Virus record (IMG/VR): IMGVR_UViG_3300028534_000004
Span: 1-64,000 of that record
Source of the DNA: a virus
Direction: 5' to 3' (one strand)
DNA: 64,000 nucleotides
Position numbers and translations under genes: made by a program. Of this stretch, positions 2,394 to 11,210 are shown piece by piece. Under the pieces are notes generated by a model that saw nothing but the letters and a program-made list of their open reading frames with translations, did no database searches and was not told where the DNA came from. The number at the start of each line of letters is the position of its first letter. The first letter of the stretch is position 1.

Positions 2394-2678
2394 ATGTCGA
2401 CACAGGAACATAGTTTCCTGTCCATAGCAGATTTTAAGTCTGCTATAGGAACGAATAAGCTTGTTATCAAGCATATTCGTCCCAAGGACGGGAAAGATTA
2501 TGTTGCTGTGATAGACGACAAAGACGAAATAGTAGGATTTGCGAATCCTGCTATTGACTGGACTAACATTAGTCCAGACAAACTCGTCGTTGTTGTCTAT
2601 CATGACGTTGACGAAGATGGTAATTCAACAGAGAATTACTATCTGACTCTTCGTCGTGATGTCCTTGCAGTATTGTAA
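2394..2678 (+). CDS. hypothetical early protein
   Basis: 94-aa ORF starting 11 nt after box copy 1. The coding sequence contains perfect hairpins, e.g. ATAGCAGA/TCTGCTAT at 2424-2446 and CTGGACTAA/TTAGTCCAG at 2558-2577. Confidence 0.6.
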   Translation: MSTQEHSFLSIADFKSAIGTNKLVIKHIRPKDGKDYVAVIDDKDEIVGFANPAIDWTNISPDKLVVVVYHDVDEDGNSTENYYLTLRRDVLAVL

Positions 2679-2855
2679 GGTAATCACAGCGACATGACCC
2701 TTGGTGTTGGGGGATATACGACACAAAATCCCATGCTGCTATAGCGTGGTCTGTGTGAGCAGGGTTGAAGTCACTAAAAGGCTTTCCGCAGCATCTCACA
2801 ATACAGACCACGCAGGGAATTCTCTGTTATGGCTTTGTATCTTTTTTGAAGACCA

Positions 2856-2869
2856 CCATAAGAACTAAT
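2856..2869 (+). promoter_or_regulatory. phage promoter-like box, copy 2 (CCATAAGAACTAAT)
   Basis: Exact box 11 nt upstream of the ATG at 2881 and directly after a T-run (2842-2847). Confidence 0.5.
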
Positions 2870-2880
2870 TACAAAGTCTA

Positions 2881-2961
2881 ATGCTGTTTACAATTGTATT
2901 CGGCTTTGTTGCTATGGCAGGTTTTGCTGCCATAACAGCAATATTGCAAGGTGAAGAATAG
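2881..2961 (+). CDS. 26-aa hydrophobic peptide (MLFTIVFGFVAMAGFAAITAILQGEE), putative
   Basis: ATG placed relative to the box as in copy 1. Encodes a single transmembrane-like helix. Below the ORF-track size cutoff. Confidence 0.35.
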   Translation: MLFTIVFGFVAMAGFAAITAILQGEE

Positions 2962-3519
2962 TAACCTTGCAACATATCCGACTAGGGGTAGCTAGTTTCG
3001 GATATGGCCAACGGCATTGGCGCAAATCTACCCATTAGCCTAAAGGCAGCGCCCTTCTTATCCTGCAAGAAGTAAAATAAAGCAGGTTTCCCGTGAGTCT
3101 AGCACTCTTGACGGGAGTAAATAAAAAGTATTAGAGTGCCTTCCGCCAGGAAGTAAAAAGGGTTGTAGAGTTGGCTGCTCTACGTAAAATTATGCTCCTG
3201 TCACAGTAACCTATACTCTACTGTGATTAACAGGTAATCATAGGTTGTCCTAAAGCATGGCCTTGGACGTAAAACATAGGCTTTTTTTAATAACCGTAAC
3301 CACTAACGGTATATAAATAAGTGGTTCAGCTACGTGCTTTGTCCTCTTTCTGGTAGCTGGTAAAATATAGGTTAAAGGGGTCGTAGTAGGTTGTCCTTTT
3401 CCTGCTACATAAAAGAAGGAAAAAGGTCGTGTTCAGGTGATTCCCAGCCTGACACGTAAAAGATAGAAATGGGATACAAGGCAGAGAAGTGAAATAGCGA
3501 CTCTGCCTTGTTTTTCTTT
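2962..3519 (+). ncRNA. ORF-free tandem stem-loop array (structured RNA or long 3' UTR)
   Basis: About 560 nt with no credible ORF and at least 12 consecutive stem-loops, e.g. GTAGAG/CTCTAC at 3165-3183, TCACAGTA/TACTGTGA and CAGCTAC/GTAGCTG. Nine of them are followed directly by GTAAAA or a near variant (3072, 3117, 3153, 3184, 3234, 3269, 3360, 3409, 3456). Confidence 0.6.
3477..3519 (+). terminator. intrinsic terminator
   Basis: 10-bp stem CAAGGCAGAG (3477-3486) / CTCTGCCTTG (3501-3510) followed by TTTTTCTTT. Confidence 0.75.
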
Positions 3520-3543
3520 ATAAAAAAATTAAAAAACAATATT

Positions 3544-3762
3544 ATGACAGGAAAAGAAATCCTTGAAACCCTTATTTCTAAGGGTTTCAAAATTTCAGGA
3601 GATGTAGCAATATCTCCTGAAGACAAATTTCGCATTCACCTCGAAAGAGGTGAGTGTGGAATAAGACCATACATGTTTAAGATTAAAAGAGGCGTAAAAA
3701 TAAGAATTTACGCCTCTACAGATACCGTAAACTGGTTAGACGTTCTTATGGAATACGTCTAA
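3544..3762 (+). CDS. hypothetical early protein (72 aa from ATG 3544; the track ORF starts at TTG 3508 inside the terminator stem)
   Basis: ORF in which five perfect hairpins of 7-11 bp (3563-3590, 3595-3620, 3636-3653, 3688-3717, 3734-3764) cover more than half of the coding sequence. Confidence 0.5.
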   Translation: MTGKEILETLISKGFKISGDVAISPEDKFRIHLERGECGIRPYMFKIKRGVKIRIYASTDTVNWLDVLMEYV

Positions 3763-3836
3763 CCATATGTTATTCCCCACACAGTACGGCGCTATATAAA
3801 TACGCTGTATGGGGACTATAAGCGCCAGTATAACAT

Positions 3837-3932
3837 CCCACAGATACACAGCGAGGATTGTAATCACAATCTGATGACCTGTGTTGATGGACAGCCAATG
3901 GAAAGTAGGTTCAACTCCTACCTGCGGGACCA
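3837..3932 (+). tRNA. tRNA-like element with encoded CCA (not a canonical tRNA)
   Basis: Acceptor stem CCCACAG (3837-3843) / CTGCGGG (3922-3928) with one A-C mismatch. Canonical T arm GTAGG-TTCAACT-CCTAC (3905-3921), discriminator A and CCA (3930-3932). The 61 nt in between have no D arm and no 7-nt anticodon loop; they form an ACACAG/CTGTGT stem enclosing GATTGT-AATC-ACAATC. Confidence 0.55.
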
Positions 3933-3955
3933 TAAAGCCCCTTAATCGGGGAAGT

Positions 3956-4017
3956 CCTACACAGAAAAACTATCAGCCCAAGAGGTAGATAGTCACTGCT
4001 GTGTAGGTCGTTTTTTT
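3956..4017 (+). terminator. intrinsic terminator (long hairpin)
   Basis: CCTACACAG (3956-3964) / CTGTGTAGG (3999-4007), with an inner ACTATC/GATAGT stem, followed by TCG and T7 (4011-4017). Confidence 0.7.
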
Positions 4018-4044
4018 ATACGGTTTTCTTTCTTTTTTATTTCA

Positions 4045-4058
4045 CCATAAGAACTAAT
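4045..4058 (+). promoter_or_regulatory. phage promoter-like box, copy 3 (CCATAAGAACTAAT)
   Basis: Exact box directly after the terminator at 3956-4017 and 21 nt upstream of the ATG at 4080. Confidence 0.5.
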
Positions 4059-4079
4059 AACTAAATTAAAGTTATACCC

Positions 4080-4238
4080 ATGTTCCCGGGTATCAAAATT
4101 CATTGTTTCGCAGACAATGAAGCCTATTTTAGGCATAGGGAAAACACGGTAGAAGTGGAGATGTGCTTACATCAAGAGCTTCTACTAAGCCGTGGGGAGG
4201 ACAAAAGCTTTAGCGAGCTACAAATCTCCCAGTGTTGA
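4080..4238 (+). CDS. 52-aa hypothetical peptide, putative
   Basis: First ATG after box copy 3 (MFPGIKIHCFADNEAYFRHRENTVEVEM...). Short, with no motif, so it could instead be part of the structured RNA. Confidence 0.3.
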   Translation: MFPGIKIHCFADNEAYFRHRENTVEVEMCLHQELLLSRGEDKSFSELQISQC

Positions 4239-4678
4239 TAGTAAAGAGTTACTGCGCTAACAGTAACGTGGTTGCTATCAAAATAAGAGTTTTATCACTT
4301 TCTCTTATAATGCGAATTATCTCACCCCAGAAAAATGGTCTGGGTTAAAAAAGTGAACTTCCGAATAGGGAAGGGTTTAGCTACAACGGGTAATACTGTT
4401 GTAGTCCCGAAAGGGTGCTATTGGATTCTGTCCCAGCAGATGAAAATAGTAATGTGAATTCTAGGGTCTTGCGCAAGCTACTAGAAGGAGCATAGAACCT
4501 ATCGGAAGTAATGAGGTTGGCAACCTACCAAATTGCCTTAACCTAAGTGGTGAAGGGACTTACCATCCCGTTGGCAGCCTTCTTCAGTGAATCTGATTGA
4601 AGTATCACCACATGCGAGTTGAGACCTTGTCATAAAACTCGCTTAAGGAATCGCCTCTATGGCGGTTCCTTATTTTTT
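4239..4678 (+). ncRNA. ORF-free structured region (second stem-loop block)
   Basis: About 440 nt with no ORF of 60 aa or more on the + strand. Contains nested hairpins, e.g. TTGATAG..GTTACTG-CGCTAA-CAGTAAC..CTATCAA (4234-4280), ATAAGAG/CTCTTAT, CTACAAC/GTTGTAG, CCC-GAAA-GGG and GCGAGTT/AACTCGC. Confidence 0.5.
4645..4678 (+). terminator. intrinsic terminator
   Basis: 11-bp stem AAGGAATCGCC / GGCGGTTCCTT (one G-U pair) with loop TCTAT, followed by ATTTTTT. Confidence 0.75.
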
Positions 4679-4687
4679 ATAATACCA

Positions 4688-4701
4688 ACATAAGAACTAA
4701 T
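4688..4701 (+). promoter_or_regulatory. phage promoter-like box, copy 4 (aCATAAGAACTAAT)
   Basis: Differs from the other copies at one base. Sits directly after the terminator at 4645-4678 and 39 nt upstream of the ATG at 4741. Confidence 0.45.
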
Positions 4702-4740
4702 TGCTAAGTTTAAGTTTTAAACTTTAAAATTTATCTAACT

Positions 4741-5700
4741 ATGGGTCAAGATATCAAAGTGAGCGCAAGAATGCGCTCACAAAAAAGAGAAATTGCTCTG
4801 GAGGTGGACTCCAGAGCACATTCCGCTATTGAAAGTAGCGGAATTAAATTCAAGGAAGGCATCGAAAATGCCTTCTGCGAATTCTCTAGGAATTTCCCTG
4901 GAGAGGAATTTGCAGTAGAAACTGCAAGTTCAAAAGATTTCGAGCCTGACTATGAATTTAAGGCTCGATTAAAAAACGGAGAATATTTTAATATTCTCCA
5001 AAATTACACCCCAAGCGATGCATGGGATGATGAAAAAGAAGGTGACGAAATCACCTTTGAATATTTGAACGCGTATGAGTTTCACAAGAACTCATATATA
5101 ACAATGTTCAAATATAAAAATTCAGACCTAATTTATTACTCAGGTCTGAGTAAAAATGAAGTTAAACTCCTTATGGAGTTACTTCAACAGGAATTTTCGC
5201 TTGATTATGTAACGTCAAACGAAATAAACCAAGTATTAGTCAAAGATACTTGGGAAAAATTTTCTTCGCTACCAACAGAAGTTCAACAAATGTTAGGAGT
5301 GAAATACGAATTTGTTCTGGAAGAAATTCCAGAACAAATAAGAAGAGTATTAAATACTCTTCCTTACTATCTGGGAGGAGAACCAGATAATAAGAAATAT
5401 TTCGGTATTGATAAAAAAATCGTAGCCGAAATAGAAAATAAAAAAATAGACGCAAATAAATTTTGCATCTATTCAAAAAACGGAGAGAAGTACATCTTCT
5501 GCTCCGACGAGTATTATCCCAAGCTTGCTTATGCAGTCGCTTGGGGAGTTATTGACTTATCAGAGTATAAGTACTCTGACAAAAATGAATTCTTCCAGCA
5601 AAAATATGAAAAGTGGCTGGAAGAAAACAATTACTCGCGTATGAGAGAATACGCAGGAATAGGATGTAGAAAAATCGAATACTTCAATCTCTACATCTAA
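4741..5700 (+). CDS. hypothetical early protein (319 aa)
   Basis: A 960-nt ORF is too long to arise by chance in stop-rich DNA. No recognisable motif. The coding sequence carries at least 15 perfect stems of 7 bp or more. Confidence 0.75.
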   Translation: MGQDIKVSARMRSQKREIALEVDSRAHSAIESSGIKFKEGIENAFCEFSRNFPGEEFAVETASSKDFEPDYEFKARLKNGEYFNILQNYTPSDAWDDEKEGDEITFEYLNAYEFHKNSYITMFKYKNSDLIYYSGLSKNEVKLLMELLQQEFSLDYVTSNEINQVLVKDTWEKFSSLPTEVQQMLGVKYEFVLEEIPEQIRRVLNTLPYYLGGEPDNKKYFGIDKKIVAEIENKKIDANKFCIYSKNGEKYIFCSDEYYPKLAYAVAWGVIDLSEYKYSDKNEFFQQKYEKWLEENNYSRMREYAGIGCRKIEYFNLYI

Positions 5701-11072: not shown

Positions 11073-11210
11073 GGTAGGGTGACGAAATGGTAGACGTAAC
11101 CTTGGGATAGCATCCCAACCCTTACAGCGGGAAAGAGGTGCTGTTGCAAGCATTATGCGATGCATGCTAAACTTAATGCTGAAGTACAGGTTCGAATCCT
11201 GTCCCTACCA
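11073..11210 (+). tRNA. oversized tRNA-like gene (138 nt), anticodon unresolved
   Basis: Acceptor GGTAGGG / CCCTACC, class-II-like D arm (TG ACG AAATGGTAGA CGT) and T arm ACAGG-TTCGAAT-CCTGT. There are 87 nt between the D and T arms, and I can fold no 5-bp/7-nt anticodon arm. Confidence 0.5.

Follow-up and report, generated by a model that had tools for sequence, protein, structure and literature searches.

What purpose is served by a stretch of phage DNA that encodes no protein, and in which hairpin after hairpin of unrelated sequence is followed by the same short A-rich motif? This question is raised by positions 2962-3519 of a window of 64,000 nt (positions 1 to 64,000 of IMG/VR virus record IMGVR_UViG_3300028534_000004; all coordinates are those of the window). 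A preliminary description, made from the letters alone, had seen there about 12 stem-loops punctuated by GUAAAA linkers, and had suggested repeated binding or cleavage sites for one RNA-binding protein or RNase. We consider it likely from the sequence that this region, hereafter the array, is a head-to-tail row of about ten sequence-diverse H-type pseudoknots and not of plain hairpins.

A non-coding array of hairpins followed by GUAAAA

The motifs lie where the preliminary description had placed them on the + strand: GTAAAA at 3072, 3153, 3184, 3269, 3360 and 3456, GTAAAT at 3117, ATAAAA at 3409 and GTAATC at 3234. Within 2962-3519, [GA]TAAA[AT] occurs ten times, against 2.28±1.34 (maximum 7) in 2000 dinucleotide shuffles, and eight of these have a hairpin of at least 5 bp immediately before them, an arrangement found 0.16±0.40 times (maximum 2) in the shuffles. 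Elsewhere in the window, two hairpin-preceded motifs are the most that any 558 nt of either strand contain, and 8 of the 28 hairpin-plus-motif sites on the window's + strand crowd into 385 nt. The shared unit that had been proposed, a variable stem with a conserved A-rich tail, is far beyond chance, and it is a feature of RNA, on the + strand.

The claim that the region is free of open reading frames (ORFs) also holds. All six frames of 2962-3519 are closed by a mixture of TAA, TAG and TGA, which led us to reject a hidden gene read through recoded stop codons, a candidate considered because stop-codon reassignment occurs in some crAss-like phages. The GC content of the array is ~0.40 as against ~0.30 phage-wide, and its + strand folds with a z-score of -5.0 relative to shuffles. 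As had also been said, this is no direct-repeat array: TRF (minimum score 30, 2800-3600) returned no direct or tandem repeats in it, and a repeat search across it gave just short matches of two or three copies.

Loops complement the segments beyond the A-rich tails

In eight of ten units the hairpin loop is complementary to a purine-rich segment just past the A-rich tail. The longest Watson-Crick run between each loop and its own tail sums to 49 over the ten units, whereas shuffling the partners among units gives 35.2±3.1 (p=2e-4). The summed duplex energy of the cognate pairs is -65.6 kcal/mol, compared with -36.8±6.0 for permuted loop/tail pairs (p=2e-5), -33.3±6.0 with the tails shuffled and -28.0 with the flanks upstream of the hairpins. 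The AGG that the preliminary description had noticed after several tails belongs to this complementary segment. Because the loops complement the segments that follow the A-rich tails, we read the units as H-type pseudoknots. The tails are indeed a shared feature, as had been claimed, but the complementarity suggests that they are something other than simple single-stranded linkers.

An automatic detector that is independent of the hand-drawn hairpins agrees with this reading. Its criteria are a stem 1 of at least 5 bp, a stem 2 with five or more Watson-Crick pairs, and a loop 3 that measures 4-18 nt and is at least half A; in 3054-3456 it finds six units on the + strand and none on the - strand. 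Background levels are 0.58 units per kb over the window, 0.195±0.44 when the array region is shuffled 1000 times, and 0.46 per kb, with at most three per 500 nt, on other phage loci (1.5 Mb, both strands).

Each unit would thus consist of stem 1, an A-rich loop 3 starting with UAAAA, and a strand of 5-7 nt that pairs with the hairpin's own loop to form stem 2, with loop 3 running along the minor groove of stem 1. Loop 3 is at least as long as stem 1 in all units but one (U5, below), as sterics require. Loop 1 measures 0-9 nt and loop 2 0-4 nt across the units, and unit length is ~24-56 nt. Stem 2 leaves little room before the following unit: its 3' strand is separated from the next stem 1 by 0-2 nt in seven of eight cases. 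We infer that these abutting helices could stack into one long rod, and the same abutment would explain the conserved GGU before each stem.

That GGU is part of a junction found in all nine GUAAAA-type units when they are aligned by hand on the base of stem 1: 5'-(A-rich)GGU followed by YNU…ANG followed by UAAAA, on stems that differ. UAA is present in nine of nine units, UAAAA in seven, a closing Y-G pair in eight and a third pair U-A in seven; the closing pair is C-G in four units, U·G in four and C·A in one. At the remaining stem positions both sides change in 17 cells, and 97.8% of cells are paired, counts that come from an alignment built on the hairpins themselves and so describe the pattern without testing it. 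GUAAAA could then be the stem-1/loop-3 junction, its conservation being structural and not that of a cleavage site.

Judged by its letters, the folded RNA is the + strand. Local folding gives -197 kcal/mol on the + strand vs -182 kcal/mol on the - strand, with 20 vs 12 G·U pairs. The U·G closing pairs of four of the nine units are impossible on the complementary strand, and loop lengths are sterically sensible on the + strand only. A minus-strand RNA was accordingly rejected on the G·U pairs, the U·G closing pairs and the empty detector result.

Layout of the units

All features described here are on the + strand. The row is preceded by a 5' domain (2973-3033) composed of hairpins H1 (2973-3006) and H2 (3007-3021) and the segment CUACCC (3028-3033). 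This domain has the same habit as the units that follow it, in that the six-base H1 loop, GGGUAG (2986-2991), is fully complementary to 3028-3033.

Unit U1 (3054-3086) has a stem 1 of CUUCUU/AAGAAG (3054-3072), a loop 3 of UAAAAUAAA, and a stem 2 that pairs CCUGC (3062-3066) with GCAGG (3082-3086). In U2 (3088-3139), stem 1 at 3088-3117 and the tail UAAAUAAAAAGUAUU accompany a stem 2 between GCACUCU (3102-3108) and AGAGUGC (3133-3139). U3 (3140-3153) and U4 (3164-3184), which together span 3140-3184, are hairpins with UAAAA tails in which a stem 2 of at least 5 bp is absent. The U3 loop GCCA (3145-3148) complements UGGC (3172-3175) in the U4 loop, and a loop-loop contact of these 4 bp is possible, on weak evidence.

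U5 (3197-3245) has a stem 1 at 3197-3234, the tail UAAUC, and a stem 2 of ACCUAU (3209-3214) with AUAGGU (3240-3245). Since the full 12-bp stem would leave loop 3 too short, only its upper part may coexist with stem 2. U6 (3246-3284) offers two choices of stem 2, AAAGC/GCUUU or GGCCU/AGGCU, beyond a stem 1 at 3246-3269 and the tail UAAAACAU(AG). Next comes U7a (3293-3326), in which stem 1 is ACCGU/ACGGU (3293-3310), the tail is AUAUAAAUA and stem 2 joins AACCACU (3298-3304) to AGUGGUU (3320-3326).

U7 (3326-3380) combines stem 1 at 3326-3360 and the tail UAAAAUAUAGGUU with a stem 2 of CCUCUUU (3343-3349) and AAAGGGG (3374-3380) that includes one G·U pair. U8 (3382-3426) has stem 1 at 3382-3409, the tail UAAAAGAAGGA and a stem 2 of CCUUUU (3395-3400) with AAAAGG (3421-3426), and U9 (3428-3474) has stem 1 at 3428-3456, the tail UAAAAGAUAGAAA and a stem 2 of UCCCA (3442-3446) with UGGGA (3470-3474).

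The predicted transcription unit

On the + strand the array is part of an ordered unit that runs from a promoter-type motif at 2857 through a 26-codon ORF and ~560 nt of non-coding RNA to a terminator at 3477-3519. The small ORF upstream (2881-2961) and the strong terminator at the end that the preliminary description had claimed are both found.

The motif that heads the unit, CATAAGAACTAAT (2857-2869, +), is a 13-mer that recurs exactly at 4046, 4689 and 5763 and with one mismatch at 2370, always on the + strand and within 3.4 kb. Every copy has a T-rich terminator just before it and an ATG 24-52 nt after it, and CATAAGAACTAAT is probably an early promoter of the phage. Relatives have counterparts at the same positions that are lineage-specific: AAAACCCTCACTAAT in loci L021 and L046 and in Flavobacterium phage FpV4, and AAAAAAAGTAATRYAYTAA in locus L055. 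In the crAss-like phage phi14:2, by contrast, early promoters were reported to have no motif in common (bioRxiv 10.1101/2020.03.07.982082).

The 26-codon ORF, taken from the ORF list (+ strand), would encode the hydrophobic peptide MLFTIVFGFVAMAGFAAITAILQGEE. Its ATG lies 24 nt past the promoter motif, the same spacing as for the ORF of 94 amino acids (aa) at 2394. Predicted hairpins at 2909-2941 and 2944-2972 overlap it, and given this overlap it is plausible only as a putative coding gene. At the other end of the unit, the intrinsic terminator (3477-3519, +) folds into an 11-bp stem followed by the U-run UUUUUCUUU; the fold of 3470-3525, which includes it, has -23.9 kcal/mol. A consensus terminator scan overlooked it because its loop is longer than 8 nt.

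Beyond the terminator lies an orphan ORF of 72 aa (3544-3762, +) that lacks a copy of the promoter motif and to which transcription from 2857 could extend solely by terminator read-through. It has no match in Pfam, PADLOC or PDB, its product has no homologue among 1.84 billion representative proteins bar one weak partial match, and its AlphaFold model is unusable (predicted local distance difference test, pLDDT, 46.8). From its position, the 72-aa protein may be a partner of the array. A HicA-like reading of its N-terminus was dropped, as profile support is absent and the structure model unusable.

The phage and its relatives

The window is AT-rich (~30% GC) and carries three tRNA genes. The source is, on the evidence of its genes, a crAss-like (Crassvirales) phage of a Bacteroidota host, because a 182-aa protein encoded 1.4 kb from the array belongs to a family common to Flavobacterium phage FpV4-type, Bacteroides and IAS crAss-like phages, and because a Crass_capsid gene adjoins the relatives of this protein. 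Two adjacent giant ORFs of 2625 and 4491 aa (34680-56026, - strand) presumably encode the virion RNA polymerase and the ejection proteins that crAss-like phages usually have. An exact look-up returned only two metagenome contigs (~86.4 kb), both identical to the window over 2394-5700.

The array lies ~600 nt from a switch in gene orientation and a minimum of the cumulative GC skew. The intergenic region that separates the two divergent gene arms holds, at ~2320-2355, a non-coding element, AAATCCGAAAnTAnCCCCCC(C), that is kept at the equivalent place in loci L055 and L057 of the nearest relatives despite protein identity of only ~50%; it is a candidate terminus, origin or regulatory site.

A search of 50,697 phage records for homologous DNA gave no match, and a 703-aa protein tried as a route to relatives proved promiscuous and not syntenic. 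The 182-aa protein led further, to 33 IMG/VR loci (34-41% identity) and five proteins (36-55% identity). Its nearest relatives share 48-55% aa identity, on contigs whose ends lie ~2.4 kb from the gene for the homologue. A scan for hairpin plus GTAAAA, the pseudoknot detector and a covariance model, R1, were applied to 784 kb in 61 loci, phi14:2 and FpV4 among them; they found no cluster and gave only scattered matches at chance level; R1 is little informative, as it recovers just 5 of its own 9 units at E<10. The preliminary description had held that absence of the pattern from related phages would speak against it. Formally the pattern is absent from their loci, but this weighs little at 48-55% identity and with contigs ending ~2.4 kb away.

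What the distant loci, phi14:2 and FpV4 do share is the style of their early regions, with a promoter, a small ORF or non-coding RNA, and a terminator. In L055, the closest relative, the first early unit consists of a 19-codon hydrophobic ORF with a terminator right behind it. By this comparison, the array seems to have been inserted into a unit of this kind in the present lineage only.

Other candidate structured RNAs near the array

Two further structured regions lie downstream. The first is a 268-nt region (3763-4030) after the 72-aa ORF, which folds at z=-4.2 and contains a tRNA-like element (3826-3931). This element has a T arm (GTAGG-TTCAACT-CCTAC), the 3' acceptor strand CTGCGGG, a discriminator A and an encoded CCA; its 5' strand, CCCACAG, leaves one A·C mismatch, a normal anticodon arm is absent, and neither ARAGORN nor Rfam calls it. 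The second is a promoter-to-terminator unit at 4046-4672 that is almost wholly non-coding, with a doubtful 52-codon ORF at 4080-4238. Its ~610 nt would make a very strongly structured RNA (z=-8.8) without a match in Rfam, and it is a candidate for another large phage RNA.

A 31-nt segment starting with GTAATCACA is found twice (2680-2710 and 3860-3890, 71% identity), once in the structured tail behind the 94-aa ORF and once in that behind the 72-aa ORF. AGGTAATCA is present at the U5 junction too (3232).

Near this cluster of highly structured early RNAs, a 299-aa DEDD-type exoribonuclease-like protein is encoded (70-969, - strand), with an Rv2179c-like 3'-5' exoribonuclease domain (31.5 bits) and the PHROG annotation 'RNase H'. 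Farther away, an Rfam tRNA match at 11073-11210 (+ strand, 36.7 bits) spans 138 nt and is uncalled by ARAGORN; an insertion or intron may split a tRNA gene here.

Possible functions of the array

We propose, with somewhat less than even confidence, that the array is a nuclease-resistant multivalent decoy or scaffold RNA. This multi-site platform is suggested by the repetition of one junction about ten times on unrelated stems. The region would form the body of one early transcript of the phage, and this RNA would be abundant and long-lived, by analogy with the early long non-coding RNAs of phi14:2. A single RNA-binding protein or ribonuclease, from the host or the phage, would find on it about ten copies of a helix-plus-A-tract junction, and this factor would be titrated or blocked early in infection. 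Compact pseudoknots with an A-rich loop 3 are mechanically very stable and should resist exonucleases and helicases, while the diversity of the stems would keep the array stable against recombination.

Several points weigh against this proposal and the structure beneath it. The pseudoknots are inferred from complementarity, nested alternative folds compete for part of these bases, a convincing stem 2 is missing from U3 and U4, and the loop 3 of U5 is too short for the full stem. The array is a singleton sequence whose two contigs are identical here, and no relatives were found for the 94-aa, 72-aa and 319-aa flanking proteins. With a single sequence, orphan neighbours and distant relatives on short contigs, there is no phylogenetic covariation, and the sole 'covariation' is that between paralogous units in a hand-made alignment. 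Because phi14:2, FpV4 and 59 other loci are without such an array, it does not belong to the core functions of crAss-like phages. The neighbouring ORFs yielded no RNase, toxin or RNA-binding domain, and the binding partner is putative; the conserved junction could be a purely structural triplex module without a ligand.

The most ordinary rival, which we regard as unlikely, is that the array acts only in cis, as a structured untranslated region (UTR) that stops exonucleases and so lengthens the life of the 26-codon ORF message, or that sets the amount of transcription or translation arriving at the 72-aa ORF, with no partner in trans. Its position between a plausible small ORF and a terminator fits this, and the comparison with L055 suggests an insertion into a 3' UTR. 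Other early units carry structured tails too (z=-4.2 and -8.8), a DEDD-type 3'-5' exoribonuclease-like protein is encoded nearby, and the great mechanical stability of pseudoknots with an A-rich loop 3 is what a stabiliser would call for. However, one terminator hairpin is normally enough to protect a 3' end, ten units with a conserved junction exceed the need, and related phages manage without the array.

The most interesting rival comes from type III toxin-antitoxin systems, to which the preliminary description had drawn a speculative link through the A-rich sites cut by ToxN-type endoribonucleases. Type III antitoxins are made of tandem units that each fold as a pseudoknot, and the toxins cut A-rich sites (AA/AU for ToxN_Pa, A/AAAA for ToxN_Bt and A/AAA for AbiQ); the gene order is repeats, terminator, toxin, and phage TE escapes ToxIN via a pseudo-ToxI array (PMC5086642). 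On this model, an A-tract-specific endoribonuclease would cut each GUAAAA, and the ~10 pseudoknot RNAs released would remain in complex with it and keep it inactive, in the manner of ToxI and ToxN. If it came from the host, as a type III-like toxin or an Abi nuclease, the array would be a phage anti-defence decoy; if it were the 72-aa product, the two would form a self-contained RNA-protein pair. As with ToxI, AntiQ, CptI and TenpI, the array has tandem units, here predicted to be pseudoknots, with A-rich UAAAA sequence between them, a terminator, and then a promoter-less ORF dependent on read-through. The earlier link thereby gains a parallel in architecture.

What the array lacks are the near-identical repeats and the toxin gene. 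Known type III arrays consist of 2-6 near-identical direct repeats of 34-45 nt beside a ToxN/CptN/TenpN nuclease of 150-190 aa, whereas the phage array has ~10 units that all differ in sequence and in length (~24-56 nt). A ToxN/CptN/TenpN-like gene was not found: the ORF after the terminator is the 72-aa orphan, less than half the size of these nucleases and without a match to a toxin or defence profile. Moreover, a loop 3 lodged in the groove of stem 1 would not leave UAAAA freely single-stranded. We therefore consider cleavage at GUAAAA by such an enzyme unlikely, and the likeness to type III antitoxins is architectural only.

Quite unlikely, in our estimate, is a narrower form of the decoy in which the array is a new class of anti-defence RNA, a non-repetitive cassette of about ten triplex-type pseudoknots with one helix-UAAAA junction in common. 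It would serve as a polyvalent pseudo-substrate or pseudo-antitoxin and, within the first minutes of infection, begin to trap a host ribonuclease specific for A-tracts. Its target may be a type III-toxin-like or another RNA-targeting defence of Bacteroidota. The diversity of the stems would then block recombinational collapse, and would perhaps widen the range of nuclease variants neutralised.

An element that works at the level of DNA is very unlikely. Origin or priming signals, a packaging site, or N4-like hairpin promoters for the virion RNA polymerase could all be imagined ~600 nt from the orientation switch and GC-skew minimum, the more so as the virion polymerase of phi14:2 transcribes denatured DNA (bioRxiv 10.1101/2020.03.07.982082). 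However, loop-tail complementarity with sensible loop lengths exists on the + strand only, and the G·U and U·G pairs are A·C mismatches on the complementary DNA strand. The array is also bracketed by a promoter motif and a terminator, and this motif is a linear 13-mer without a hairpin.

Highly improbable is a small-molecule aptamer array, that is, a sponge or sensor built from pseudoknots like those of preQ1-I or SAM-II. The units do have the architecture of these smallest riboswitch aptamers, a minimal H-type pseudoknot in which a stem 1 of 5-8 bp is followed by an A-rich 3' tail whose end pairs with the loop in a short stem 2, and SAM-II is the sole near-match of Rfam on the + strand (13.8 bits, E=1.4, gathering score 36). 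No riboswitch family reaches its threshold, however; SAM-II (RF00521) stays below its gathering score and preQ1-I (RF00522) has no match at E<=10. The array units are without a conserved ligand pocket, since a loop 1 of 0-9 nt and a loop 2 of 0-4 nt leave none in common, and they differ from these aptamers in their varied geometry, their ten copies and their genomic context, which is not upstream of a metabolic gene.

Finally, a non-functional spacer, patterned by chance or by the decay of an old repeat, would suit the single occurrence but is barely credible, as shuffles, permutations and 1.5 Mb of other phage DNA all reject chance and as the stems have diverged while pairing and junction were kept, unlike in decay.

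Comparison with known RNAs

As far as its sequence tells, the array belongs to no described RNA family. Rfam returned nothing relevant, whether for the whole window at gathering score or for 2600-4800 and 3040-3480 at E<=10. Antisense targets of the array within the window are none above chance.

A formal parallel exists with transfer-messenger RNA (tmRNA), in which a short ORF is likewise followed by tandem H-type pseudoknots, the PK2-PK4 string. There is no Rfam tmRNA match to the array at E<=10 and no ARAGORN call, and the tRNA-like domain is absent from the RNA ends. A giant or permuted tmRNA that would use the downstream tRNA-like element was rejected, since no 5' acceptor partner was found. 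With this model Rfam does recognise tmRNAs in phi14:2 and FpV4. In the early region of phi14:2 (L061, 4031-4500) the match has 46 bits, just below the gathering score of 47, and ARAGORN finds it too; in that of FpV4 (L063, 5648-6062, minus strand) it has 58.2 bits and ARAGORN misses it.

A CRISPR (clustered regularly interspaced short palindromic repeats) array or RNA anti-CRISPR is not indicated either: there is no repeat family, and the weak Rfam CRISPR-DR matches lie only outside the array, on the - strand. Some Bacteroidota CRISPR repeats end in a stem plus GUAAUCACAAC-like sequence. Mimicry of a Cas13b or CRISPR repeat was dropped as an idea, as the units have no flanking GUUG…CAAC, although real host repeats were not compared.

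Two systems are comparable in principle and serve as analogies. CsrB and RsmZ are sponge RNAs that present GGA in hairpin loops and titrate CsrA. Like them, the array has many hairpins that offer one short motif repeatedly; unlike them, what it repeats is a helix-plus-UAAAA junction, for a partner that is only putative. The upstream pseudoknot domain of the tobamovirus 3' UTR consists of three consecutive H-type pseudoknots before a tRNA-like end, and is protein-binding and stabilising. The abutting small pseudoknots of both could stack as a rod, a matter of analogy and not homology, for tobamoviruses are eukaryotic RNA viruses, whereas the array has ~10 units, a conserved UAAAA junction, and a place in a DNA-phage transcript that ends in a terminator.

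A further comparison is with the early long non-coding RNAs of phi14:2. In that phage, two early intergenic regions are transcribed above most genes, and their RNAs persist late in infection (bioRxiv 10.1101/2020.03.07.982082). There is no similarity of sequence or motif between them and the array: one phi14:2 region holds the tmRNA gene, which lies in the g005-g006 gap and probably accounts for one of the two reported long non-coding RNAs, and the other has no GUAAAA or pseudoknot array. Nevertheless, the virus order is the same, both are found in the early region and each has its own transcription unit. The position, promoter motif and terminator of the array fit a crAss-like early non-coding RNA, for which it is a candidate.

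The crAss-like phages are among the most abundant viruses known, and in phi14:2, the one model with a transcriptome study, early long non-coding RNAs rank among the strongest transcripts. With the array, an RNA of this kind gains a concrete proposed anatomy of ~10 abutting pseudoknots, one junction, defined boundaries and a possible protein partner. If the decoy proposal is true, Crassvirales would have an RNA-based device for takeover or anti-defence, and a natural, non-repetitive multi-copy RNA part would be at hand. If the array is only a stabiliser, it would still be an unusually long natural string of pseudoknots, useful for studies of nuclease resistance.

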